A DNA stretch of 64,000 bases, from positions 23,546 to 87,545 of the forward strand of contig DATAJX010000006.1 of NCBI GenBank assembly GCA_036261915.1. Direction: 5' to 3'. Made by a program: the position numbers and the translations under genes. The DNA comes from Alphaproteobacteria bacterium (GTDB lineage Bacteria > Pseudomonadota > Alphaproteobacteria > UBA2136 > UBA6156). Below the pieces are notes generated by a model. That model made no database searches. It had not been told where the DNA came from and was given only the letters and a program-made list of their open reading frames with translations. Every line of letters starts with the position of its first letter. Position 1 is the stretch's first letter. Below, in pieces: positions 3,506 through 64,000 of this stretch.

Positions 3506-6366
3506 TATTTTTTGCTCCTTCCATCAACAACATCGGGCTTGGGCGCGCTGCCGCCGGTCAGGCCGCGGAAGATCCCCTTCAGCAGCCCGGGCGTGATCAC
3601 GCTCAGCGGGCGCACGGTAATGTCCGGCGCGTCGGCGCTGCCCTTCAGTTTAAAGTCGGCCACCACCACGCCGTCCTGCCCGCCGGTCAGCAGCGTGCCC
3701 AGCAGCGGAATCTGCCCCACCAGCCGGTTGAACGGAATGGCAGGCGCCATCTGGCCGTCAATGTTCATGGTGCGGGTGGCGCGGTTATACACGCCGTTCA
3801 GCCGCAGGCTCATGCTCGGGCCTTCCATGGTCACGTTATCAATAAAGATGTTGTCGCCATCAAACCGCAGCGGAATGGCCGCATTGTCAAACAGCACGCT
3901 GTCGCCGCCGGCCAGCAGCTGGGTCAGGCTCAGCATGCCCAGCAGGCGCACCAGCACCGGCGGGTTGGCCAATTCAAACTTCCGCATCTGCAACACGCCC
4001 GAAGCCACGTCGGGCGAATCGTAGTTGATCTCGCCGAACACCTGCCCGCCGCGCAGGTCCTTATAGGCGCCAATGCCGCGCAGCAGCTTGCCCGCGTTAT
4101 CAATATTGATGGCCAGCTTGCGGCGGCCGTCGGCGCCCTTGCTGCTGATCACGTTCACCTGGTTGTTGCCGTCAACCTTGGCGGTAAAGGTGTTTATCTC
4201 CCAACGCCCGGCACGCGCCACAACCTCGGCGGTCAGGTTGCGCATGCTGGCCTCGCGGGTTTTCAGCTCTTCCAGCTTCACGCTCACGTTCATGTTCTTC
4301 ACCGTGCTTTCGCTGGTGCTGGTGCTGAACAGGTCGATGGCGCTCAGGTCCAGCTTTTTGCCGGTAATGCTCAGCGTGTCGCCGTTCATCTCCAGCTTGG
4401 CGCTGCTCGGCGCGGTCCACACCACCTGCCCTTTCAGGTTGGCGCCAAAGGTGGCCAGCGCATCGGCCAGGGTGGCTTCCAGGTTCTGGCCGCCCATTTG
4501 GCCCTTGGCTTTAATGGCCATCTTGTCGGCGCCGATTTTAAAATTCCCCTCGCTCACCTGCAGCGGCGGCAACGGCAGGTCTTCCACCTTGTCCAGGGTC
4601 ACGTCGCGAATGTTGCTGTCCACCGCCATCATCGCATCTTCCGGCGTCGTTTCCTTGCCGCGCACAAACGGCACGGTCACACTAATGCCCGTGCTGTGCG
4701 TGCCCGCGCTCACAACCGGCATGTCCTTTTTCAGCCAGCCGCCCAACCCTTTCAGCAGGGGGCTCAGCGGGCCGTTCACCGTGCCGCTCACGATCACGTC
4801 GGTGGGCCCGGGGGTGAACAGGTTGGTGATCTGTATCTCGGCGCCCTCCACGTTCTGCGGGCCGTTGGCGGCGGTGCCCATTTTGGTGGGGCCGATGTTG
4901 AACACCAGCGCATCGCCGCGCATTTCGCCGGTGCCGCTCACATCGCCCACAGGGCCCAGCGCGTCGGCAAAGGTGGCCTTGCCCTTCACAATGTTCAGCC
5001 GAAGCTTCAACCCGCAGGCGCTGCCGCAATACGGCATGTCGCCGGGGTGGCCGTTATAGTTCAGCACCAGGTTGGCATACCTGGCGTCGGCAATGTTCTT
5101 GCGCAAAAACGGCATGGCCACGTCCAGCCGCTTGTCGGGTAAAAAGTCGAAGATGCGCTGCGCATCGCCACCGGCGGTATAAGCCACAATGCTCACCAGC
5201 GGGCCCCTTCCATTCGTGGGGCCGGTCACCCCCTGCACCCAGCCCTTGGCATGAATGTTCTCGATGCCTTTGTACACCGCTTCCACGTCATGCAACGTCA
5301 GCAAATCGGTCGGGCTGGCCTGGTAACTGGCCGTCAACGTCAAGCGGTCGAACTTGATACTGTGGCTGAATTCCGAAGGCGGGGTAAAGGTAATGTCGCG
5401 CAACCGCAGCGTGATCCACGGCTGGCCCAGCCGGTTGTTGCGGTCAAGGGTGGTGCCCACCTCCACGTTGCCTTCGGCGCGCATCAGGTCGCTCACCGGC
5501 TTGGGCAGGTAGTCGGCGATCAGGTCCACGTCGGCGCTGCCAAAACGGGCGCGTATCTCGGCCGTGTCGGCGTCCTCGGCGTGGTCGAACGTCACCAGCA
5601 CCGGCAGGCGGCGTTCGTGGCCGTCGGCGGCACGGCGGCGCACTTCGGCCACCAAACTGCCGTGCTCGCCGCCGTCATCGGTCTTGCCTAAATCAACCGT
5701 GGCATCCTGCATGATCCAGTCGGTGTTCTGCACATTGTCGCGCAGCAGCAGAGTCAGGCCCGTCACCTTCACGCTGCTCAGCCAACCCCAGGTATCGTTG
5801 GCGCCCATGCCGTTCAAAAAGCCCACCACGCCCAAACCCTTACTGGGCTTGGCTGCCGCGCCGCCCACGTTCAACCCGGCAATGCTTATCTCATTCTCGT
5901 CGCGCACCACGCGCAAGGTCACGTTCTGGGCTTCCACCGTGCGTGGCGCGATCTTAAAGCGGAACAGCGAACTGCGCGAAAACCGCACCGCCGCCTGCTC
6001 GATCACCACCGCCAGCGTGCCGTCACCGCCGCGCAGGCGCAGGTCGCTGGCGCGCAGCACAATGCCCTTGTCGTAAAACATCTCCAGCCCGCTGGCGCTC
6101 AGCTTGGCGCCGTCGCCCAGCATCTTCTCGATGCTCGGCAGCCAGCCGCTCAGGCTCACGGGTTTGGTAATCGGGTGCGCCTGCTGAAGCCATAGCACAC
6201 CACCCACCACGCCGGTCACGATCACCAGCATCAGCAGCGCAAACACACGGCCGATCCACAGCATGCACACGTGCGGCACCAGCAGCGCCAGGTTGCGGCG
6301 CACGGGCTTGATAAGCTTCTGCTCGGCCAGCTTTTTGATCGGCTTGAGCGGGTTGTTAGTCTTCAC
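3505..6366 (-). CDS. Large AsmA-like / YhdP-like outer-membrane biogenesis family protein (N-terminal TM anchor, 953 aa)
   Basis: GTG start with GGGGAG 6 nt upstream. It has a single N-terminal TM helix followed by a long beta-rich periplasmic body, matching the architecture and size of AsmA-family proteins. Confidence 0.5.
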   Translation of the reverse strand: MKTNNPLKPIKKLAEQKLIKPVRRNLALLVPHVCMLWIGRVFALLMLVIVTGVVGGVLWLQQAHPITKPVSLSGWLPSIEKMLGDGAKLSASGLEMFYDKGIVLRASDLRLRGGDGTLAVVIEQAAVRFSRSSLFRFKIAPRTVEAQNVTLRVVRDENEISIAGLNVGGAAAKPSKGLGVVGFLNGMGANDTWGWLSSVKVTGLTLLLRDNVQNTDWIMQDATVDLGKTDDGGEHGSLVAEVRRRAADGHERRLPVLVTFDHAEDADTAEIRARFGSADVDLIADYLPKPVSDLMRAEGNVEVGTTLDRNNRLGQPWITLRLRDITFTPPSEFSHSIKFDRLTLTASYQASPTDLLTLHDVEAVYKGIENIHAKGWVQGVTGPTNGRGPLVSIVAYTAGGDAQRIFDFLPDKRLDVAMPFLRKNIADARYANLVLNYNGHPGDMPYCGSACGLKLRLNIVKGKATFADALGPVGDVSGTGEMRGDALVFNIGPTKMGTAANGPQNVEGAEIQITNLFTPGPTDVIVSGTVNGPLSPLLKGLGGWLKKDMPVVSAGTHSTGISVTVPFVRGKETTPEDAMMAVDSNIRDVTLDKVEDLPLPPLQVSEGNFKIGADKMAIKAKGQMGGQNLEATLADALATFGANLKGQVVWTAPSSAKLEMNGDTLSITGKKLDLSAIDLFSTSTSESTVKNMNVSVKLEELKTREASMRNLTAEVVARAGRWEINTFTAKVDGNNQVNVISSKGADGRRKLAINIDNAGKLLRGIGAYKDLRGGQVFGEINYDSPDVASGVLQMRKFELANPPVLVRLLGMLSLTQLLAGGDSVLFDNAAIPLRFDGDNIFIDNVTMEGPSMSLRLNGVYNRATRTMNIDGQMAPAIPFNRLVGQIPLLGTLLTGGQDGVVVADFKLKGSADAPDITVRPLSVITPGLLKGIFRGLTGGSAPKPDVVDGRSKK

Positions 6367-6382
6367 GCTGGCTCCCCACCAA

Positions 6383-6666
6383 GGCCTGATAAAGAAGGAT
6401 TTTTAGGTGTTTGTGGCCAGCCAAACGCCGAAGCGGAGCGTTCGGTTTGTGTTTTGGACGACGACGCGCAGCGGGACTGCGCGAGGAGGAGAAAACCGAA
6501 CCGGGCGGCATTTGGCTGAGCCACCCGAAGGGCACGGGCCAAAACGGCTCCCCGTACCGTCTTGTCGGGCTTATGCAGGCCATGCAGCACCGTGCCCTCC
6601 GCGCCGCCACGGGATAGCCGTTTATGGCCTCGTGCAAACATCCTAAAAATCCTTCTTTATCAGGCC
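6383..6666. repeat. ~31-bp inverted repeat pair (6383-6413 and 6635-6666) enclosing a ~220-bp structured intergenic segment
   Basis: ggcctgataaagaaggatttttaggtgtttg against caaacatcctaaaaatccttctttatcaggcc, which differ by one indel. The right copy encodes the prfB C-terminus (GLIKKDF*). Confidence 0.7.
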
Positions 6667-7753
6667 ATCGGCCAGTGCGGCACGAATGAACCGGTCGATC
6701 TTGCCGTCCAGCACACCGGTGGTGTCACTGGTTTCCTCGGCGGTGCGCAGGTCCTTCACCATCTGGTAGGGGTGCAGCACGTAACTGCGTATCTGGTGCC
6801 CCCAGCCGATGTCGGTCTTGGCGTCCTCCAGCGCGCTTTGCGCGGCCTCGCGCTTGCGCAGTTCAATGTCGTACAGCCGGGCCTTCAGCATGTTCATGGC
6901 AATTTCGCGGTTGCGGTGCTGGCTGCGGTCCTGCTGGCTGGCCGCCACGGTGTTGGTGGGGATGTGCGTGATGCGCACCGCGCTTTCCACCTTGTTCACG
7001 TTCTGGCCGCCGGGCCCGCTGGCGCGGTAGGTATCAATGCGCAGGTCGGCCGGGTTGATCTGGATGTCGATGTTGTCGTCCACTTCGGGGTAGGCGAACA
7101 CGCTGGCAAAGCTGGTGTGGCGGCGGGCGTTGCTGTCAAAGGGGCTGATGCGCACCAGCCGGTGCACGCCGCTTTCGGTCTTGCTCATGCCGTAGGCGTA
7201 ATCGCCCTGAATGAAGATGGTGGCGTTCTTGATGCCCGCCTGCTCGCCCTCGGCCTGGTCGATGATGCTCACCTTAAAACCCTGGCGCTCGGCCCAGCGC
7301 ATGTACATGCGCAGCAGCATGGCGGCCCAGTCGCAACTTTCGGTGCCGCCGGCCCCGGCGTGCACTTCAATAAAGGCGTTGTTGATGTCGGCCTCGCCGC
7401 CCAGCAAACACTGGGTTTCCAGTTTGTCGGCCTCTTCCAGCAAAGCCGAAAGCTCCTTCGCCCCCTCCTCAACGCTGGCGGCATCGTTCTCGGCTTCGCC
7501 CAGTTCCAGCAGCGTCACGGCGTCGTCCAGCTTGCGGCGCACGGCATCGTACTGCCCCAGCGTCACTTCAATGCGGCGTTTTTCCTGCATCACTTCTTTG
7601 GCGGCGGCAGGGTCGCTCCACAGGTCGGCGCTGGCGGCCCGGGTTTCCAATTCGGCTAAACGTTCACGCGCGGCGGCAGGGTCAAAGACGCCTCCCGAGC
7701 AGGTGTAAAACCTGCTCCACTTTTTCCACAATCTGCTTGTGTTCGGCCTGCAT
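6643..7753 (-). CDS. prfB: Peptide chain release factor 2, expressed through a programmed +1 ribosomal frameshift
   Basis: Frame 0 reads MQAEHKQIVEKVEQVLHLLGRRL, then CTT TGA C. After the +1 shift it continues DPAAARERLAELE... through the GGQ motif (RASGPGGQNVNKVESAVRITHIPT) to the stop at 6643. The ORF track shows only the downstream frame (6643..7731). Confidence 0.9.
7681..7687 (-). other. prfB +1 frameshift site CTT TGA C, with an upstream SD-like GGGAGG
   Basis: The minus strand reads ...CTC GGG AGG CGT CTT TGA C..., the canonical RF2 autoregulatory frameshift cassette. Confidence 0.85.
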
Positions 7754-15755: not shown

Positions 15756-18296
15756 ATGAAAAAAATGCTTATCGACGCAACCCACAGCGACGAACAACGG
15801 GTCGTGCTGCTCGACGGTAATTACGTCGACGATTTCGAAGCCGAAACCTCGGGTAAAACCCAAACCAAATCAAACATCTACGTGGCCCATGTGAGCCGCG
15901 TCGAACCCTCGCTGCAGGCCGCATTCATCAGCTACGGCGCGGTCCGCAACGGCTTTCTGGCCTTCGGCGAAGTCCACCCCGCCTTCTTCAACCTGCCCAA
16001 GGCCGAAAAAGCCGAACTGTTAGAAGAACTTATCGACGTCGCCGCCCGCCGCCGCCAACGCGATGGCGACGAACTCCCCGGCCTGCCGCCCGCCGAAAGC
16101 GCCGACATCAGCGACGAAGCCGCGGTCGAGCTGGCCACCACCCAGGCCGACGAGCCCCAACCCGCTGAAACTTCAGGCAAAAAACGCCCCCGCCGCGCGC
16201 CCACCAGCGCCGCCGCCAAGGCCGAATCGGCCAAGGAAGTCCGTGGCGAAGAAGCCAAAAAATCCAAGAATTTCGAGCGCAAACCACCCATCCACCGCCG
16301 CTACCGCATCCAGGACGTGCTGAAGGAAGGCCAAAAGATTCTCATCCAGGTCGTCAAGGAAGAACGCGGCACCAAGGGCGCGGCGCTCACCACCTACTTC
16401 AGCCTGCCCGGCCGCTACACCGTGCTGATGCCCAATACGCCTTACGCCGGTGGCATTTCGCGCAAGATCACCGACCATGACGAACGCCGCCAACTGCGCG
16501 ACACCTACGCCGCGCTCAAAATTCCCAACGAAATGGGCCTCATCATCCGTACCGCCGGGGTAGGTCAGGAAATCGCCGCCATCCGCCGCGATTACGACAA
16601 TCTCACCAGCCTCTGGAGCAACATCACCGAAAAGTTCGCCAAGGAAGACGACATCCAGTGCGTGCACGAAGACGGCTCCCTCATCATCCGCGCCATGCGC
16701 GACATGATGAGCGACGACGTCGAAGAAGTGGTCATCGCCGGTAAAGCCGCCGCCAAAACGGCCAAGGATTACTGCAAGAGCCTGATGCCCAACGTCGCCA
16801 AGATTTTGCACGAACACAAGGAGGATACTCCCTTATTCGCGCACTACGGGGTCGAAGAAAAGCTCAACCAGCTGCACCACAGCCGCGTGGTGCTGCCCAG
16901 CGGCGGTTACCTGGTCATCAACCCCACCGAGGCGCTGGTGGCCATCGATATCAACAGCGGCCGCGCCACGCAGGAACGCAACATCGAAGAGACCGCCTTT
17001 AAAACCAACATGGAAGCGTCGGAAGAGATCGCCCGTCAGATCCGCCTGCGCGACCTGGCCGGGCTGATCGTGGTCGACTTCATCGACATGGAAGACCACC
17101 GCAATACGCGTAAGGTCGAAAATGCCATGCGCCGCGCCCTGCGCCGCGACCGCGCGCGCATCCAGTTCGGCAACATCTCCGATTTCGGCCTCATGGAAAT
17201 TTCCCGCCAGCGCCTGCGCCCGAGCTTTGGCGAAAGCCACTTCATCACCTGCCCGCACTGCCAGGGCAGCGGCCACGTGCACAGCCCGGCCACGGCGGCT
17301 TTGATGATTTTACGCCGCCTGGAAGACGACGATACCCACGGCGCCGACCGCGTGTACATCTCCACCAGCCCCGAGCAGGTGCTGTGGATGCTGAACCACA
17401 AGCGCGACCACATCCGCGAACTGGAAAGCAAGTACAAGTTCTCCATCCAGTTCAAGGCCGACCCCGCGCTCATCGCGCCCGACCACCGCCTCGACCTCAC
17501 CCGCGTGAAGTCCGACGGTACCGAAACCAGCCAGACCATCAACGTGAGCCTGCGCGAGCAGCCCGAACTGCCGCCCGAACTGCGCATGCGCGAACGTGGC
17601 CGCAACCGTGGGCGTGATCGCGATAACGGCGGCGAAAACCGCCCCAAACGCGACCGTGACGACGACCGTCCGCAGCGCAACGAACACCGTGCCGATAACA
17701 GCGACCGCGAAGACCGGAATGATGACGCACGCGACAATAACCGCAGCAACCGCGAACGCGGCGGCAAAGGCCGTGGCCGCGATCGTGGCGGCCGTGACCG
17801 CAACGACCGTGGCGGCAACCGCCACGACGCCCCGCGCCGCCCGCAGCGCATCAGTGCCGAGGCCGCCGAGTCTTCGGCCGACGCCACCGAAAGCCGCGCC
17901 GTGGCCGCCGGTAGCGCCAGCGAAGGCAATACCAATGGCAAGCGCCCGCAGCGCGATGGCAACCGCGATAACAACCGTGGCAACGTGCGCCCGGCCCGCC
18001 CGCAACGTGCCGCCGCCCCTGTCGAAGACCAGCCCCTGCTGGTACAGCAGGTCACGGTGAGCGCCGACGATAACGATGCCCCCGCCATCAAGGCCGCCCC
18101 GCGCAAAAAGGTGGCCATCAAACGGCAGGAGGACACCGACGCCGCCGACGCCCCCCTGCAGGTGGAAAAGGTGAGCGACTCGGGCAGCGGCAGTAAGATC
18201 GCCCGCGCCACGGCCAAGGTCGAAAAGACCGACAAGCCCGCGCCCAAAGCCCCGAAAGAAGGCAGCATCCTCGCCCGCCTGATGGGCAAGCAATAA
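15756..18296 (+). CDS. rne: Ribonuclease E
   Basis: Has the S1 and catalytic domain (MKKMLIDATHSDEQRVVLLDG...) and an Arg/Asp/Asn-rich low-complexity C-terminal scaffold. Confidence 0.9.
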   Translation: MKKMLIDATHSDEQRVVLLDGNYVDDFEAETSGKTQTKSNIYVAHVSRVEPSLQAAFISYGAVRNGFLAFGEVHPAFFNLPKAEKAELLEELIDVAARRRQRDGDELPGLPPAESADISDEAAVELATTQADEPQPAETSGKKRPRRAPTSAAAKAESAKEVRGEEAKKSKNFERKPPIHRRYRIQDVLKEGQKILIQVVKEERGTKGAALTTYFSLPGRYTVLMPNTPYAGGISRKITDHDERRQLRDTYAALKIPNEMGLIIRTAGVGQEIAAIRRDYDNLTSLWSNITEKFAKEDDIQCVHEDGSLIIRAMRDMMSDDVEEVVIAGKAAAKTAKDYCKSLMPNVAKILHEHKEDTPLFAHYGVEEKLNQLHHSRVVLPSGGYLVINPTEALVAIDINSGRATQERNIEETAFKTNMEASEEIARQIRLRDLAGLIVVDFIDMEDHRNTRKVENAMRRALRRDRARIQFGNISDFGLMEISRQRLRPSFGESHFITCPHCQGSGHVHSPATAALMILRRLEDDDTHGADRVYISTSPEQVLWMLNHKRDHIRELESKYKFSIQFKADPALIAPDHRLDLTRVKSDGTETSQTINVSLREQPELPPELRMRERGRNRGRDRDNGGENRPKRDRDDDRPQRNEHRADNSDREDRNDDARDNNRSNRERGGKGRGRDRGGRDRNDRGGNRHDAPRRPQRISAEAAESSADATESRAVAAGSASEGNTNGKRPQRDGNRDNNRGNVRPARPQRAAAPVEDQPLLVQQVTVSADDNDAPAIKAAPRKKVAIKRQEDTDAADAPLQVEKVSDSGSGSKIARATAKVEKTDKPAPKAPKEGSILARLMGKQ

Positions 18297-27877: not shown

Positions 27878-28468
27878 ATGACCCAGCGCGGCGCCCTGTT
27901 CGGCCTCGATGCCCGCATCGCGCTGGCCATTTTCGCCGTTCTGGCGGTGGTGGTGGGCTATCTGGCCTTCGGGCGCATCCAGGTGGCCCGGCAGGCCGCC
28001 CTGCTGGCCCAACTGCAGGATATCGAAAACGCCCTCGCCGCCTATCAAACCGACATGGGCACCTTCTTCCTGTTCACGCTGAATAAAGAGCCGGGCGACA
28101 ACGACAGCACGCTCGATATTACCGCCCTGTGGGATAAAAACATGGTCAAACCAGGCTTCCGGCGGCACTGGAACGGCCCCTACCTGCACCGCACCAGCCG
28201 CGAAATGCCCGGCTACGGCCGTTTAAGCGTGTTTTACGCCACCGGCGACCGCAAAGACTACTGCTCCACCACGTCCGACTGCTTTGTGTGGCTGTCGGTA
28301 TCCAGCACGCCGCAAAAGGCCTGGGTGCAAACCAACCATATCGTCGACGAAGGCAACGGCGCTGAAAACGAGATCGACGGCCAGCAGATCAGCCTCGGGC
28401 GCATCCAGTCCGAAGCCGCCACCGACCCCCGCCCGCTGTATTACCGCACGGTCGAACGCCCCCGCTAA
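27878..28468 (+). CDS. Pseudopilin-like protein A (GspG/EpsG-like body, atypical N-terminus)
   Basis: Conserved N-terminus QRGALFGLDARIALAIFAVLAVVVG, then AL..Y..D.G.F and W.GPYLH motifs reminiscent of T2SS major pseudopilins. Paralog of 34152..34745. Begins 7 bp after bamE. Confidence 0.55.
   Translation: MTQRGALFGLDARIALAIFAVLAVVVGYLAFGRIQVARQAALLAQLQDIENALAAYQTDMGTFFLFTLNKEPGDNDSTLDITALWDKNMVKPGFRRHWNGPYLHRTSREMPGYGRLSVFYATGDRKDYCSTTSDCFVWLSVSSTPQKAWVQTNHIVDEGNGAENEIDGQQISLGRIQSEAATDPRPLYYRTVERPR
27896..27944 (+). repeat. Direct repeat copy 1 (encodes LFGLDARIALAIFAV)
   Basis: ctgttcggcctcgatgcccgcatcgcgctggccattttcgccgtt, about 85-90% identical at the nucleotide level to 34185-34233. 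Confidence 0.7.
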
Positions 28469-28478
28469 GCCGCCATTT

Positions 28479-28506
28479 AAAAAGCCCCCGGCCGGGGGCT
28501 TTTTTA
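28479..28506. terminator. Bidirectional rho-independent terminator
   Basis: aaaagcccccggccgggggcttttttact, lying between two convergent genes. Confidence 0.75.
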
Positions 28507-31500
28507 CTGCGCGGCACGGCTGTACTTGGCGGGCTGGGCCGCAAAGGCGGCATATACATACGTGGCGCCACTGCCGTTATAGTCGCTGTTGGTGTTGCGT
28601 ATCTTGAACCCGTTTGAAACCACATCCAGGTCGGTGGCCGCATTACTGTTACTGGCCGATGTCAGGTTATAAAACACCTCGTTGCCGTCCGGGTTATACA
28701 GGTTGCGCGCGGTATCCAGCACAAACCAGTTGCCGGTGCTGTCGGTGCGCTTGATGATCACAAGCGCGGGTTTGAAACCCAGGTTCACATAAGCGCCGTC
28801 GGCACTACCGTTCCCGGTATAGGTTCCAAATTTGCTGAATCCCGGCACCTCGGCAAAGGCATAAACAACATAAGGCTGGCTGGCCAACACGCCGCCCCCG
28901 GCGGTCAGGCCCACATTGCTCGAGGTATGGCCCGAACCCCACATGGTCGAATACGTGGTCGCCGCCGCGGTGGTGTTCAGCGCCAGGTAGGCCGTGGTGT
29001 TGTTCGCCAGGTTCTGGTGCCACACATACCAGTGCGAAGCCGAACCGCTATACGTCCGGGCGATCACAAACGCCGGTACAACCCCCATGCCGTGCGCCGC
29101 GGTAAAAGCCCCCGATCCTGGCGCCGTACCGGTCAATATGTCCATGCCGGGCGTAACGCCCTTCTTAAACATGTGCGCCACATAAATGTTGCCGCTGGTG
29201 TTAAAGGCGCTGGCGCTGCCTACCGCAAAACCGTTGTTGTAAAAGGTTGCCAGCGATTGCGCATCGATGGTCTGCACCGCCGTGCCCGTGCTGTCCAGGT
29301 ACTTGGCGGGCCCGCGCGCACTGTCAAACCAGCCCCATGCGCCGGTGCTGGTATTATCCTTCAGCATCACCAGGTCGGGCTGGTAAGGGGTGTAGGTGGT
29401 CAGCGGCGTGTAGGTGATAACAATAAGCCCAGGGGCGCCCACACCCGCCGTGCTGCTGTTCGAACTACCGCCGCCGCCGCCGCCGTACAGGCCACCATTA
29501 CCCGCCGAATAACCGCTGCTGCCGCCCTGTTGCGAGCCGCCGCCGCCGCCCGAACCGTGCAGCGGGTCAAACTCCTGCCCGTTGCCACCGTTACCGCCCC
29601 TGCTGGCGCCGGCAGGATTGCCGCCGCCGCCGCCGCCGCCGCCCGATGACCCGAACAGCGAATAACCGTACCCGCCATGGGTATTGTTCACCGCCACGAT
29701 CCCACCGGTGCCGTTGACCAGCCCGCTGGCATTGGCCCCGCGCCCGCCAACGCCGCTGGTGGTGTTATTAGAGGGTCCCAATTGACCGGCTTCACCGCCG
29801 CCGCCGCCGCCGCCGCCCGGGCCGCGGTAGTTCACACCCGCGTTCGAGCCACCGGCCCCGCCATTGCCATAAGGTCCGGCCGCACCGCCGCCGCCGCCGC
29901 CCGCCTGGGTGCCGGTGGCGGGGCTCTGCCCGTTGCCACCGGCGCCGCCCGAATACTTGGTGGTACCGGTACCCGAGCCCGAAGCCCCGCCAGCCCCACC
30001 CGTGCCACCGCTGCCGCCGCTGCCGCCCTTGGCCCCCACGCTCGAAGCCGCCACGCTGGTGCCGTTGAACCACGTATCGCCGCCGGCGGTGCTGGCCGCA
30101 CCACCGCTCCCCACCTGGGTCTGCACGGTGGTGGTGGGCACCAGCGCCAGGTTCGATATCTTCGAGTACCCGCCGCCGCCGCCGCCGCCGTTGACCGAAG
30201 ACCCCGACGACGCCCCACCGCCGCCACCGATCACTTCAATGGTGTTGCTGGTGCTGTTCCAATCCAGCGGCACGCGCCACGAAGTCCCCCCGGTCAAAAA
30301 TATCTGCTTGGTCGTCGGCACGGTGGGCACATAGGTGATCACCACGATCCCCGGCGCCCCATTCCCCGGGTTTCCCTGGTTGGTGCTGGTATAACCGGCA
30401 CCGCCGCCGCCGCCGCCATACAGGCCGCCGTCACCACCACGGTAAATACTGCTTTCGCCGCCGCCGCCGCCGCCGCCCGCACCTGCACCACCCCACTCAA
30501 TGCCGTCGCCCCCCTTGCTCCCCAAACCGTGGGCACTGCTCACGCCGCCGCCGCCGCCTGCGCCAAAGGCCCCGGCGGTCGAATCCACACTGGCCGTCGC
30601 CGCACCGCCGCCGCCGCCGCCAAAGCGGTTAGCACCACCGGCACCGCCGGTGGTGCTCGTACCGTTACCTCCAACCGAACCGCCATTAGCTCCACCGCCA
30701 CCACCCGAACCTGCACTACCGGCCGAACTCATATCGCCACCATTGGCGCCATTACCGTTGGGCCCGGCGGCGCCACCGCCACCGGGGCCGCTCACATAGC
30801 CCGAGCCACCACCCGAATTCCCGCCGCTATACGCATAAGGCGCACCGGGGTTGGTGGTGCCGCCACCCGCACCGCCGCGCGCGCTCGAAGCCGCCCCGCC
30901 GGTCCCGCCGCTGCCGCTGGTGCCGCCGGTGCCGCCCTTGGCACCCACGCTCGCCACCGCCAGCGAAGCCCCGTTGAACCACGTATCGCCACCGGCACTC
31001 CCCGCCCCGCTGGTGGCCGGGGTGGCGGCCACACCGCCCATGCCCACATTGTAGCTGATGCTTGCCCCAATGGTCAGCGTCACACTGGTGGCCTTGGCAT
31101 AGCCGCCGCCGCCGCCGCTCCCGGCATAGGTGGTGCCGCCACCGGCCCCAAAACCGCCGCCGCCGCCAGCCCCGATCACTTCAATGGTGTTATCGCCGCT
31201 CCAGTCACTGGGCACGGTCCAGGTGGTGCCGCTGGTCAAAAACACCGTCTTGGTGGGCAACGGCCCAGGCAAGGTAACAACCTGGGTACCGCCCGTGCCG
31301 CGGTACAGCACCGGCTGGAAGTAAAGCGAAGGGCTCACCACCGCAGGTGTCGCCGTGTTGTAGGTGTTCAGCGCCGCAAACCCCGCCGGGGGGGTGGCAG
31401 CAAAAGCTCTCTGACCAAAGTTGAACGAGGCCGTTTGGGTGGAACCTTGGTTATTGCCTATGGCCGCCACCCAAGCCAGCCCCGCCGTAGCAGTGGCCGC

Positions 31501-34151: not shown

Positions 34152-34745
34152 ATGAAGCATATTTTACAGTCACAACAAGGCGCCATGTTCGGGCTCGACG
34201 CCCGTATCGCGCTGGCGATTTTCGCCGTGATTTCCGTGGTGGCGGGCACCGCCATCGCCATCAGCATGGATAGCACCCGCGCCAAGGCCCTGGCGCAGGA
34301 AATGTCCGACACCGGCAAGGCCATCGAATCCATCAGCTACGACATGCGCGCCGATCTTTACCCGTCCCTCATCCAACCCTCGCCCAAAAACGCCTACACG
34401 GCGCTGTTCGACGTCAGCGTCATCAAAGACGAAAACAACTTGCGCGGCAAATGGTTAGGCCCCTACGTTCATGCAACAAGTACAAGCTCCCGCTACGGCG
34501 AAATGATGATCGAGGCCCGCAAGGCCTCCCATGCCGACGCCTGCATGGAAGGCGAGCCCTGCTTCCTCTGGCTCACCTACGCCAACGTCAAACGGGCGAT
34601 TGCGCTCGAGGTCAACAGCATCATCGACGGCGACAAAGAAACCGACCCGGCCAAAACCGGCCGCATCCAGTGGGTCGAGAACGCCGACGGCACAACGCTC
34701 AGCCTGCAGGCCGCCAAAACGCTCACTTATACCGGGAACAACTAG
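34152..34745 (+). CDS. Pseudopilin-like protein B (paralog of 27878..28468)
   Basis: QQGAMFGLDARIALAIFAVISVVAG N-terminus. Contains AIESISYDMRADLYP and KWLGPYVHATS, and shares the C.FLWL motif with A. Its stop codon overlaps the nusB stop. Confidence 0.55.
   Translation: MKHILQSQQGAMFGLDARIALAIFAVISVVAGTAIAISMDSTRAKALAQEMSDTGKAIESISYDMRADLYPSLIQPSPKNAYTALFDVSVIKDENNLRGKWLGPYVHATSTSSRYGEMMIEARKASHADACMEGEPCFLWLTYANVKRAIALEVNSIIDGDKETDPAKTGRIQWVENADGTTLSLQAAKTLTYTGNN
34185..34233 (+). repeat. Direct repeat copy 2 (encodes MFGLDARIALAIFAV)
   Basis: atgttcgggctcgacgcccgtatcgcgctggcgattttcgccgtg. Confidence 0.7.
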
Positions 34746-52970: not shown

Positions 52971-52979
52971 CCGCCCATA

Positions 52980-53012
52980 AAAAACGCCCCGGCAAAACCG
53001 GGGCGTTTTTTT
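52980..53012. terminator. Bidirectional rho-independent terminator
   Basis: aaaaacgccccggcaaaaccggggcgttttttt. Confidence 0.8.
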
Positions 53013-55016: not shown

Positions 55017-55271
55017 ATGGGCAAAGTTGTCCAAACCGCTCAAGGCCCCATGTGGCAACGTACAAGGCTCGAAAAGATATTCCTTTCCCTCCAGCTTCCC
55101 TTCGTCGTGGGCCACCCCGTCACCGGCCTGTGCGTGGGCATCCTGGGCAATGCCGTGCTTTATTCAACCATCGTCACCGGCTACAACTTCGGCGTTCCTG
55201 CGGGCATCGGCACCGCCCTCCTCACCGCGATCCTGTTCATCTGGTTCTGCTGGGTAAACCTGCTCGATTAA
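55017..55271 (+). CDS. Small hypothetical membrane protein (84 aa)
   Basis: Two predicted TM helices. A terminator lies immediately downstream. Confidence 0.35.
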   Translation: MGKVVQTAQGPMWQRTRLEKIFLSLQLPFVVGHPVTGLCVGILGNAVLYSTIVTGYNFGVPAGIGTALLTAILFIWFCWVNLLD

Positions 55272-55300
55272 AAAAAGCCCCGGCAAAACCGGGGCTTTTT
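55270..55300. terminator. Bidirectional rho-independent terminator (same hairpin family as 52980..53012)
   Basis: aaaaaagccccggcaaaaccggggctttttc. Confidence 0.8.
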
Positions 55301-59387: not shown

Positions 59388-59403
59388 AAACCAGCGGCCA
59401 TAA

Positions 59404-59440
59404 AACGTAACCCCGCCAACCGGCGGGGTTACGTTTTTCA
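59404..59440. terminator. Rho-independent terminator
   Basis: aacgtaaccccgccaaccggcggggttacgttttt. Confidence 0.75.
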
Positions 59441-61684: not shown

Positions 61685-61709
61685 AAAGCCGCCTCCGGGC
61701 GGCTTTTTA
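61685..61709. terminator. Bidirectional rho-independent terminator
   Basis: aaaagccgcctccgggcggcttttt. Confidence 0.75.
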
Positions 61710-62837
61710 ATTACGTACCCCCGCCACTGGCACCAGTTCATGATACCCCTGCGCAAAAGGCCAAACCATGTAGGGGATGAACACCCGCGCCCCACCGGTC
61801 GCACTGGGGCAAAGAACATAAGTGCCCTTGTCGGCATCGCGGGCGCCGTCCAGCCGCAGGTCGCGGTAGCGCAGGCATTGCACGTTGATGCCACGCACCG
61901 GCGGCGCCACCGGGTCGTCATACACGGCATACTTGGCCAGCCAGCCGAAGGGCCCGTTGCTCCACGCATACCACGCCAGCTTGATGCGCCGCTGGCCCGC
62001 CGCCCCCACAGCTTCAGGGCCATCGGCGCCGCCAAACCGCGAATACACGCGCCATTCCGCCTCCTCGCGGGTGCGGTACAGCGCCTGCACGCGCTGGGCG
62101 CGTAACGCGTTGCCGCGCAACTGGGTGCGCTGGCCATGCTTCAGGTTGATCAACGTGTCGTGCAACCGGCTGCCCCCGGCCTCCACGTTCTCCAGCACCA
62201 CCACCCGCCAGTTGAAGGGCGAAAGCGGCTGCGGCAACGCATCCACGTTATAACCCGGCGCCAGTTGCATGGCCTCGGCGTACTGGCCGCCAAAGCGCCA
62301 CGCGGTAAAATGCAAACCGGCCAGCGCAAGCAGGTAAACCGCAATACAGCCCAATCCCAAACGGGCAATGTCGCGCTGCCAAAATCTAAAGGCATAGCCC
62401 ATCCCCAGCGTCAGCAAACACAGGCCCAGGATCACGCCGTCAAAGTCATACACCACGCCAAACGCCAATCTAATGTTCACCAGTAGCGCCAACGGCTGAA
62501 TGCCGTCGGTGGTCAACAGCCCCAGCAACAGCGTGCTTAACATGCTTGCCGCCACGGTCAGGTAAAACGCGCCCCAGCCCCGGCGGCTGATGCTCCCCAG
62601 CACCCCGGCGGTGATAAAACTCAACAGCGGCAGCAGCAAAAAGCTCCACAGCAACCCGCGCTCGGCCTGGTAATACACCCCGGCCCCACCCAGCCAGAAC
62701 AGGCCTTCCAAATAAGGCACCAGCGCCCCCACGGCACCTGCGGCCAGCCGCCACCAGCCCATGTCGTCCGGGCCGTTGCGGCGCTTCACCGCCCAGGCCA
62801 CCACCAAACCAACCGCAAGGCTGATGAGCGGATGCAT
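61707..62837 (-). CDS. Membrane-bound metal-dependent hydrolase-like protein (DUF457/YdjM-like N-terminus with a C-terminal extension)
   Basis: The likely start is MHPLISLAV at 62837 (the track ORF extends to 63080). Multi-TM N-terminal half, soluble C-terminal half. Confidence 0.45.
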   Translation of the reverse strand: MHPLISLAVGLVVAWAVKRRNGPDDMGWWRLAAGAVGALVPYLEGLFWLGGAGVYYQAERGLLWSFLLLPLLSFITAGVLGSISRRGWGAFYLTVAASMLSTLLLGLLTTDGIQPLALLVNIRLAFGVVYDFDGVILGLCLLTLGMGYAFRFWQRDIARLGLGCIAVYLLALAGLHFTAWRFGGQYAEAMQLAPGYNVDALPQPLSPFNWRVVVLENVEAGGSRLHDTLINLKHGQRTQLRGNALRAQRVQALYRTREEAEWRVYSRFGGADGPEAVGAAGQRRIKLAWYAWSNGPFGWLAKYAVYDDPVAPPVRGINVQCLRYRDLRLDGARDADKGTYVLCPSATGGARVFIPYMVWPFAQGYHELVPVAGVRN

Positions 62838-63123
62838 GATGACCCTATCTAAGGCCTTTTTGTTGAACTGCGCCGCTAACCGGCTGGATGATAAAATTTG
62901 ACGCGACACGCGCCGTGGTGCGGGCCCTACCATAAGCGGGGCGCGGCAATATTTTAGCGCCCGCAGGTTGCGGCCCTTTGGGTTGTGCCCCAATGGCCAT
63001 CCGGCTGCGCTTTGTCGCCCTTGCGATGTCCCGCATCGCAGCGGCCTCCTCATCGCGACCGGACGCTGCGCTATGGCCATTGGCGCTCAACGCAGTCAGC
63101 AAAAAGGCCTTAGATAGGGTCAT
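62838..63123. repeat. ~33-bp inverted repeat pair (62838-62872 and 63091-63123) spanning the whole anmK-hydrolase intergenic region
   Basis: atgaccctatctaaggcctttttgttgaactgcg against cgcagtcagcaaaaaggccttagatagggtcat. The left copy abuts the hydrolase start codon and RBS; the right copy contains the anmK stop codon. Confidence 0.7.
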
Positions 63124-64000
63124 ACCGTCAACACTCCACCAACAGTGGCGTGCACCGCACCGGTGGTTTCCGGCAAACTGAAGGGCAACTTCAACACGCG
63201 CCGTGCCGCCAGCCAGGCAAAGGCCTCGGCCTCCATGGTCTGCGGGCGCAGGCCCCAGCTTATGGCATCCACCGCATCAACCCCTGCGGCGGCAAAAGCC
63301 TTCATCAGGCTGGGGTTCTGGCTGCCGCCGCCGGTGGCGGCCACCGGGCCCATGGCCTTCCATTCGTCCAGCGTGCGGGCCACCCCGGCGGCGGTAATGG
63401 CGCACAGCGTCGCCGCCGCGTCCTCCGGGTTCAGCTGGCGCATCACATCCAGAATACCGTTGAACTCATAGCGGTCGGCGCTGCGCGGCAGCGGGCGGCG
63501 CCAAAAACCGGTGTCCCTCAAACTGCGCTCCACCAGGTTGTCGTGCACGCGGCCGCGCGCGGCCAGTTCGCCGTTCTTGTCAAACGGCTGGCCCAGCCGC
63601 TGCTCGCACAGGCTGTTCAGCAAGCCCACGCCGGGGCCGGTGTCGCTGGCGCGTATCTTCCCGTCGGCCTCAAACCACGTCAGGTTGGCCACACCGCCCA
63701 AATTCAAAATACCGCAGGGCTTGGGCCGCCCACCCAGCAACGCGGCATGGAACAACGGCACCAGCGGCGCCCCCTGCCCGCCGGCGGCCATGTCCCGGCG
63801 GCGAAAGTCCATCACCGTGGGCACCCCCACCTGCTCGGCAATAAAACTGGCGTCGCCCAATTGCCAGGTCAAACCCAGCCCGGGCATGTGCCGAATGGTC
63901 TGGCCATGGCACCCCAGCACATCCACACGGCCTTCGTCGGGCATCACTTTCAGCGCGGCCAGCACATACAGCTCGCTCAGGGCGCGCTCAAGTTTCAGCA
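63120..64000 (-). CDS. anmK: Anhydro-N-acetylmuramic acid kinase, C-terminal ~290 codons (N-terminus lies beyond the window end)
   Basis: ATGGGSQNPSLM and AnmK-family C-terminal motifs. The track ORF begins at an internal Met (63965), but the frame stays open to the window edge. Confidence 0.75.
   Translation of the reverse strand, partial: LKLERALSELYVLAALKVMPDEGRVDVLGCHGQTIRHMPGLGLTWQLGDASFIAEQVGVPTVMDFRRRDMAAGGQGAPLVPLFHAALLGGRPKPCGILNLGGVANLTWFEADGKIRASDTGPGVGLLNSLCEQRLGQPFDKNGELAARGRVHDNLVERSLRDTGFWRRPLPRSADRYEFNGILDVMRQLNPEDAAATLCAITAAGVARTLDEWKAMGPVAATGGGSQNPSLMKAFAAAGVDAVDAISWGLRPQTMEAEAFAWLAARRVLKLPFSLPETTGAVHATVGGVLTV

Follow-up and report, generated by a model that had tools for sequence, protein, structure and literature searches.

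Why are two neighbouring genes of an uncultured alphaproteobacterium, anmK and a gene for a YdjM-family inner membrane protein, separated by a long inverted repeat, one arm of which holds the stop codon of the first gene while the other all but touches the start codon of the second? Could this indicate a regulatory device that arose at this junction, or does the repeat belong to something that moved there? An earlier note on this DNA had favoured regulation, describing a stem that buries the start of the downstream gene (there called a membrane hydrolase) and pointing to a repeat of similar build elsewhere. We analysed the whole 64,000-nucleotide stretch, referred to as the window, together with the corresponding loci of relatives. 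The genes upstream and downstream of the repeat, anmK and ydjM, lie on the minus strand, as do prfB and yhdP at the second locus. The element between anmK and ydjM is called E2 and its counterpart at prfB is called E1; positions are those of the window.

62839-63123, minus strand: E2, span bounded by the inverted repeat, 285 nt
62837-63119, equivalently 62838-63120 (1-nt junction ambiguity), minus strand: E2, inserted segment, 283 nt, the excision of which recreates TGATG
63096-63123 (to 63091 with a gap), minus strand: E2 5' arm in mRNA sense (the earlier note's right arm), GC 43%
62839-62866 (to 62872 with a gap), minus strand: E2 3' arm in mRNA sense (the earlier note's left arm), GC 39%
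62979-63094, minus strand: E2 interior hairpin 1, long and imperfectly paired, with CGGGA as its apical loop and AGCGCAGCGT as a conserved internal loop
62873-62978, minus strand: E2 central CCC-AAA-GGG mini-hairpin and interior hairpin 2
61707-62837, minus strand: gene for the YdjM-like inner membrane protein downstream of E2, its N-terminus MHPLIS... conserved in relatives
63120-63965, minus strand: 3' portion of the upstream gene, anmK, which starts outside the window
6383-6666, plus strand: E1, sister copy, 284 nt, with arms 6383-6407 and 6642-6666 (25/25, perfect)
6356-6382, minus strand: orphaned original 3' end of prfB, TTG GTG GGG AGC CAG CGT GAA GAC TAA (LVGSQRED*)

The inverted repeat between anmK and ydjM and its sister copy

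The inverted repeat is readily recovered. A repeat search returns arms of 28 nt (62839-62866 and 63096-63123) that pair at 27 positions (96%) and enclose 229 nt. With one gap allowed, blastn extends them to 62839-62872 and 63091-63123, matching in 32 of 34 columns (94%), which bears out the coordinates of a repeat first described with 30 of 33 positions matching. Each strand of the 64-kb window carries the 24-mer core of the arm exactly once, where 100 shuffles predict 0.00. Inverted pairs of 22 nt or more whose arms lie no further than 600 nt apart number only four in the whole window, among them E2 and the pair at 6383-6666. The placement of the arms was likewise described correctly. The right arm holds the anmK stop codon (TGA, 63122-63120, minus strand, within 63096-63123); the left arm, 62839-62866, adjoins the ydjM start, stopping 1 nt short of the ATG (62837-62835), and carries a Shine-Dalgarno-like AGGG (62846-62843) 5 nt upstream of that ATG. 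The arms, at 39-43% GC, are poorer in GC than the interiors (64%) and the window as a whole (62%).

Is the repeat at 6383-6666 a separate case, as had been assumed? The two had been called unrelated, and this proved wrong: they are homologues in opposite orientation. When the minus strand of E2 (62839-63123) is aligned globally with the plus strand of E1 (6383-6666), the score stands at z = 15.6 relative to shuffles; without the 30 nt at either end, the interiors still give z = 10.5. In the reverse relative orientation, the alignment score is that of the background. By blastn, E1 and E2 are 64.5% identical over 141 nt (E = 2e-9), and an nhmmer profile of both detects these two copies and no other in the window. 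They lie 56 kb apart and are opposite in orientation relative to the transcription of their host genes. The statement that their sequences differ is thus true superficially, but they are homologous along the whole length.

The arms themselves have diverged in an uneven manner. Their inner part is common to E1 and E2 (AAGG, 1-2 nt, TTTTT), and the outermost 12 nt are almost wholly different between the copies, with near-perfect pairing within each copy. Outer arms that diverged and yet remained paired require either that the copies belong to two sub-families, each with its own partner, or that selection acts on the pairing itself. A further possibility, that the outer 12 nt were copied from the target site, was rejected: the similarity of each arm to its own target gives p = 0.6 for E2 and p = 0.08 for E1.

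Empty sites in close relatives mark both elements as insertions

Sampling of this lineage is sparse: a search of 5.8 billion proteins yields just 12 homologues of the YdjM-like protein at E <= 1e-20. E2 is absent from the anmK/ydjM junction in all four relatives examined (91%, 75%, 66% and 45%). In the closest of these (L002, 91%) the two genes overlap by 1 nt, …ACGGTC TGA TG CAC…, and the same 1-nt overlap is found in the 66% relative; the genes are spaced by 40 nt in the 75% relative and by 16 nt in the 45% relative. In silico removal of 283 nt (62837-63119) yields …ACGGTA TGA TG CAT… with both reading frames intact, a junction of the same length as that of L002 and identical to it at 52 of 60 positions. 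The filled site is not confined to one assembly, as it is also present on an independent Logan contig (L001). The absence of E2 from the orthologous junction of all four relatives contradicts the view of the repeat as a conserved regulatory device, and a lack of the repeat in close relatives was an outcome that the earlier note itself had named as refuting its view.

The E1 locus provides a second empty site. In the 88% and 74% relatives prfB and yhdP overlap (TAATG and ATGA), and E1 sits 8 codons ahead of the original prfB stop, just upstream of this overlap. The C-terminus of RF2, the prfB product, reads …AALAxKVGxKRxx in nine relatives and …AALAD-GLIKKDF* here, the last seven residues (GLIKKDF) and the TAG stop being encoded by the E1 arm. 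Removal of the 284 nt of E1 in silico returns an in-frame RF2 tail, ...AALADLVGSQRED*. The GLIKKDF tail also occurs in RF2 of an NCBI metagenome-assembled genome designated 'Alphaproteobacteria bacterium', which implies an E1-filled site there.

Did insertion duplicate the target? At E1 the 284 nt bounded by the inverted repeat equal the net insertion, which leaves a net duplication of 0 bp. At E2 the inverted repeat spans 285 nt and the junction grew by a net 283 nt, corresponding to a duplication of 0-2 bp, at most 'AT'; alternatively, a single A was duplicated, or the element runs TGACCC…GGGTCA without duplication and position 62838 later changed from G to C. No target-site duplication is evident at E1 or E2, a negative result that is not strong, given two copies only and drift after insertion. 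The absence of a target-site duplication is atypical for MITEs mobilised by DDE transposases, and the mobilising enzyme need not be a classical DDE transposase. Models with a TA duplication (IS630/Tc1-like) or a TNA duplication (IS5-like) at E2 were discarded, as they give the wrong empty-site length relative to L002.

The repeat, then, is real and present in two homologous copies, each inserted at a site that is empty in close relatives, and excision of either restores the ancestral junction. We consider it likely that the inverted repeat represents the terminal inverted repeats of a non-coding, non-autonomous, MITE-like mobile element of ~283 bp. Mobilised in trans, presumably, by some enzyme, E2 would have inserted exactly into the 1-nt stop/start overlap (TGATG) of anmK and ydjM, and E1, which faces the other way, within the final 8 codons of prfB. 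Both insertions presumably survive because the flanking genes stay expressible, with each arm supplying or keeping a stop codon. The proposal of a recurring, lineage-specific architecture stands in spirit, but not as an architecture of regulation: insertions explain the recurrence, and its confinement to gene boundaries would follow from mobile-element insertion combined with purifying selection on the sites that tolerate it.

Some details of these loci deserve mention. The orphaned prfB tail contains GGGGAG 5 nt upstream of the GTG at 6366 that is called as the yhdP start; yhdP of the relatives starts ~20 codons further in, and the called start is uncertain. Contig L205 (Logan SRR12773038_1399, same organism) ends at 16049, inside prfB and ~105 nt past E1, perhaps an assembly break near the repeat or near the prfB frameshift region. 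At the N-terminal end of the prfB ORF (window ~7660-7731, minus strand), the first ~20 residues differ from those of the otherwise 99%-identical protein P0013, in keeping with the +1 programmed frameshift site that is conserved in prfB. In the 75% relative (L003) the 40-nt spacer between anmK and ydjM contains a 14-nt tandem duplication at 1383-1410 (CTGCCACCTGCAAC / CTGCCACCTGCAAG), indicating that this junction was remodelled independently in another lineage.

Folding, further copies and resemblance to known repeat families

Both elements fold far better than shuffled sequences (z = -7.5 and -11.5). In each, AT-rich ends of ~25-28 bp form a terminal stem that encloses two long hairpins and, centrally, a small CCC-RAA-GGG hairpin; an internal loop (AGCGSAGCGT) and an apical loop (CGGGA) are conserved between them. 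Each of the 49 consensus pairs of the interior is retained in E1 as well as in E2, with both partners changed in 13 cases, compared to 33-46% pairing when the partners are slid by 1-3 columns, in a comparison that comprises two sequences and a structure derived from those same two. The two strands fold about equally well (E2, -152.6 versus -154.1 kcal/mol; E1, -155.1 versus -162.2 kcal/mol), which fits palindromy at the DNA level better than a strand-specific RNA gene.

Further copies were sought at increasing distance. There is no third copy in ~76 kb of the same genome (the window and ~12 kb from contigs L205, 9.3 kb, and L001, 2.4 kb), and the nhmmer profile finds none in ~100 kb from relatives. 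An exact scan of 185,579 species-representative genomes with a 21-mer of the E2 arm gave no match, nor did the sequences of both arms against viral contigs or E1 and E2 against 72,556 plasmids (blastn, distant mode). No other arm occurrence that would hint at a parent insertion sequence emerged from exact scans of the window, the genome representatives and the viral contigs. The pattern of conserved blocks (internal plus apical loop) is present at at least 98 genome loci and at least 99 metagenome loci; those listed, once re-scored with the full-length profile of E1 and E2, were all attributable to chance, the best non-self match having E = 0.16, and as negatives these two scans are weak. An apparent match of an E1 ORF to a protein, P0134 (E = 4e-130), is unrelated and arises from 90 weak repeat matches that were summed. 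P0134 is a predicted protein of 7,287 residues with ~140 copies of a 52-residue tandem repeat, and illustrates how summed multi-domain scores can mislead on repeats.

Bacterial MITEs are small, are bounded by terminal inverted repeats and yield stable stem-loop transcripts; they are intergenic or fused to the ends of ORFs and can modulate neighbouring mRNAs (PMC2229807, PMC2649163, PMC10969869, PMC5896051). E2 resembles them in its size (283-285 bp), its lack of coding function, its terminal inverted repeats with AT-rich ends and its location at a gene end. Like MITEs, moreover, E1 and E2 are present or absent between relatives, with recognisable empty sites at both loci, one copy rewrites the C-terminus of a protein, and the transcripts are predicted to form long stem-loops. 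Unlike MITEs, they lack a clear target-site duplication (0 bp for E1, 0-2 bp for E2), are seen in two copies only and show no similarity in the collections searched. A close parallel is QMITE1 of Coxiella burnetii, which measures 300-400 bp, has direct repeats of 2-3 nt and often overlaps the ends of ORFs (PMC5896051).

Correia elements (CREE/NEMIS) of Neisseria are 100-155 bp long, have TA termini and TA duplications, an IHF site and promoters, and occur in hundreds of copies (PMC2649163, PMC2229807); their cleavage by RNase III alters the expression of adjacent genes (PMC2649163, PMC2229807). They resemble E2 in that their terminal repeats are of similar length (~24-26 bp in Correia elements), in their position between closely spaced genes, and in their co-transcription with the neighbouring genes, the repeats forming a duplex in the mRNA that RNase III could cleave; by analogy, the 28-bp RNA duplex of E2 is a plausible RNase III substrate. 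E2, in contrast, shows none of the distinguishing Correia traits: its termini are ATGACCC.../GGCCTGAT... without TA, its length is 283-285 bp, it has no promoter-like site and its host belongs to another class. Membership in the Correia family was rejected, since the TA-duplication model gives the wrong empty-site length and both size and termini are wrong.

Two repeat families come from alphaproteobacteria. Rickettsia palindromic elements (RPEs, ~100-150 bp) lie in frame inside ORFs and preserve read-through (PMC10969869, PMC2229807). E1 is similar in being an alphaproteobacterial palindromic repeat that is translated within a host protein, where its arm supplies the last 7 residues of RF2, but E1 and E2 differ from RPEs in that the host ORF stops inside their first arm and in that they are located at gene 3' ends and junctions. 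The CIRs of Caulobacter and Brucella lack a terminal stem between their 5' and 3' ends and have a conserved GANTC in the loop (PMC2229807). They belong to the same bacterial class and resemble the interiors of E1 and E2 in their secondary structure of two arms plus linker; as neither E1 nor E2 contains a GANTC site and both possess a long, strong terminal stem, membership was dismissed. E2 thus behaves like a MITE of the Correia, ERIC, RPE or QMITE kind. The best reading is that it is MITE-like in the broad sense of the small mobile palindromic repeats of bacteria (PMC2229807, PMC10969869, PMC5896051); that it is a MITE in the strict sense is not established.

Could the palindrome instead have moved as single-stranded DNA hairpins, by means of an HUH/Y1 enzyme of the IS200/IS605-PATE or REPIN/RAYT type or of another enzyme that leaves no duplication? 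Such elements share with E1 and E2 the lack of target duplication, and two properties described above point in the same direction: nested hairpins conserved with compensatory changes, on strands that fold equally well, and arms that keep pairing while their sequence diverges. The architecture, however, does not match. IS200/IS605 ends are subterminal hairpins rather than end-to-end terminal inverted repeats, and those of E1 and E2 pair with each other over 25-28 nt; REPINs are ~70-110 nt long and built from REPs of 20-40 nt. In addition, the E1 and E2 sites share no target tetra- or pentanucleotide, the left flanks in homologous orientation being …GACGGT(A) at E2 and …CCACCAA at E1, with no common motif. 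We regard this route as unlikely. A similarly low probability attaches to an undescribed, duplication-free family of structured elements that lands preferentially, or survives solely, in coupled stop/start overlaps, with a terminal stem that re-creates coupling and with interior hairpins that function in a single-stranded DNA intermediate or in RNA. The missing target duplication and the conserved nested hairpins are nonetheless the only features that might lead somewhere new.

Predicted consequences for ydjM translation, and the bearing on annotation

What does a MITE-like insertion do to the gene downstream? A sequence scan finds neither a promoter nor a terminator above background between anmK and ydjM, and the two genes are probably co-transcribed. 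In their common mRNA the anmK UGA and the ydjM AUG would meet at the foot of the terminal 28-bp stem of E2, which would mask the AGGG and the AUG. The computed free energy of the arm duplex is -51.9 kcal/mol, and opening the ydjM start region (from the Shine-Dalgarno sequence to 12 nt past the AUG) is calculated to cost 23.3 kcal/mol with E2, compared to 11.3 kcal/mol without the element at the ancestral-type junction. The claim that the stem would bury the downstream start in an anmK read-through transcript thus holds in silico.

Does masking amount to silencing? A terminating ribosome holds roughly 7-11 nt 3' of the stop codon single-stranded (mRNA channel and helicase), and the E2 5' arm begins one base before the anmK UGA. 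The bases so freed pair with the last ~11 nt of the 3' arm, from the AGGG to the AUG; consequently, when a ribosome at the anmK UGA is applied as a constraint, the cost of opening the ydjM start falls to ~8 kcal/mol. A ribosome that finishes anmK would unwind the outer ~11 bp and free the AGGG up to the AUG, and ydjM translation would thus stay coupled to that of anmK, as it was when the genes overlapped. On this model, translational coupling is probably retained and ydjM is not silenced. A comparable arrangement reportedly exists in RNA phage MS2, in which the translation of coat and replicase is coupled by long-range RNA structure. As in MS2, the downstream start at E2 is masked by an upstream translated segment and opened by ribosomes, according to the computation; unlike in MS2, the start pairs with the far end of an inserted element and not with a complement evolved in the coding region.

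The stability of the stem, the rise in opening cost from 11.3 to 23.3 kcal/mol and the probable co-transcription of anmK and ydjM are also what a dedicated cis-regulatory RNA clamp would display, had it evolved at this junction to sequester the ribosome-binding site of ydjM. This explanation is difficult to reconcile with the lack of E2 in all four relatives, including one with overlapping genes at 91% protein identity, with the foreign-looking composition of the arms, and with the homologue E1 at an unrelated locus in opposite orientation. Opening the start downstream of E1 costs 9.1 versus 11.0 kcal/mol, hence this start is not masked, which makes masking of the ribosome-binding site a local by-product at E2 and not a property of the E1/E2 family. 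We judge such a clamp improbable, more so than transfer by an HUH/Y1-type enzyme; the stem of an inserted E2 may have been exapted as a regulator later.

Does the element encode a product of its own? A 92-codon ORF runs across E2 (window 62845-63123, minus strand; 3402-3680 of L001) and is called as a gene in a public assembly. In a search of 5.8 billion proteins its product has no match but itself, and comparison of the homologous strands of E1 and E2 reveals no conserved reading frame. On these grounds a protein-coding function of E2 was rejected, and the 92-residue 'gene' is almost certainly an annotation error to which the element gave rise. Searches of the window against Rfam gave no match at gathering thresholds, and those of E1 and E2 at E <= 10 yielded noise alone; neither E1 nor E2 contains a sigma-70-like promoter, and terminator-like sites are at background level. 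That the element is, or carries, a structured non-coding RNA gene (sRNA- or ribozyme-like) with the terminal stem as part of the RNA is very improbable: it would agree with the strong folding, with loops (AGCGSAGCGT, CGGGA and CCC-RAA-GGG) conserved while the stems covary, and with the MITE-derived sRNAs known in Coxiella (PMC5896051), but it is at odds with the lack of an Rfam match even at E <= 10 and of a promoter-like site, with a folding energy that shows no strand asymmetry, and with copies lying opposite to each other relative to host transcription, at most one of which would be read through on the homologous strand.

An apparent recurring regulatory architecture has thus become a concrete case of a small mobile element, with two insertions whose empty sites are exact, in an alphaproteobacterial lineage that has hardly been sampled. 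It illustrates one way in which a 283-bp insertion at a junction of zero length can be tolerated, with the stop codon kept and the downstream start predicted to depend on upstream translation. In an essential protein, RF2, the last residues are now encoded by a repeat element, and E2 accounts for a spurious gene annotation of 92 residues. E2 is otherwise fairly ordinary and will not surprise specialists in bacterial repeats.

Other repeats in the window are of different kinds. Bidirectional palindromes of the intrinsic-terminator type, in which a run of A and a run of T border a GC stem, are located at 28469-28515, 59402-59437, 52978-53009 and 55269-55300, the latter two with the same hairpin, GCCCCGG-CAAAA-CCGGGGC; the ordinary terminators of this genome are quite unlike the arms of E1 and E2. 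Direct repeats of ~70-104 nt, with 71-84% identity and a spacing of ~910-930 nt, are found at 29467-31254 and also at 27890-27958 versus 34179-34247, and probably represent repeated domains in one large gene, or duplicated genes.
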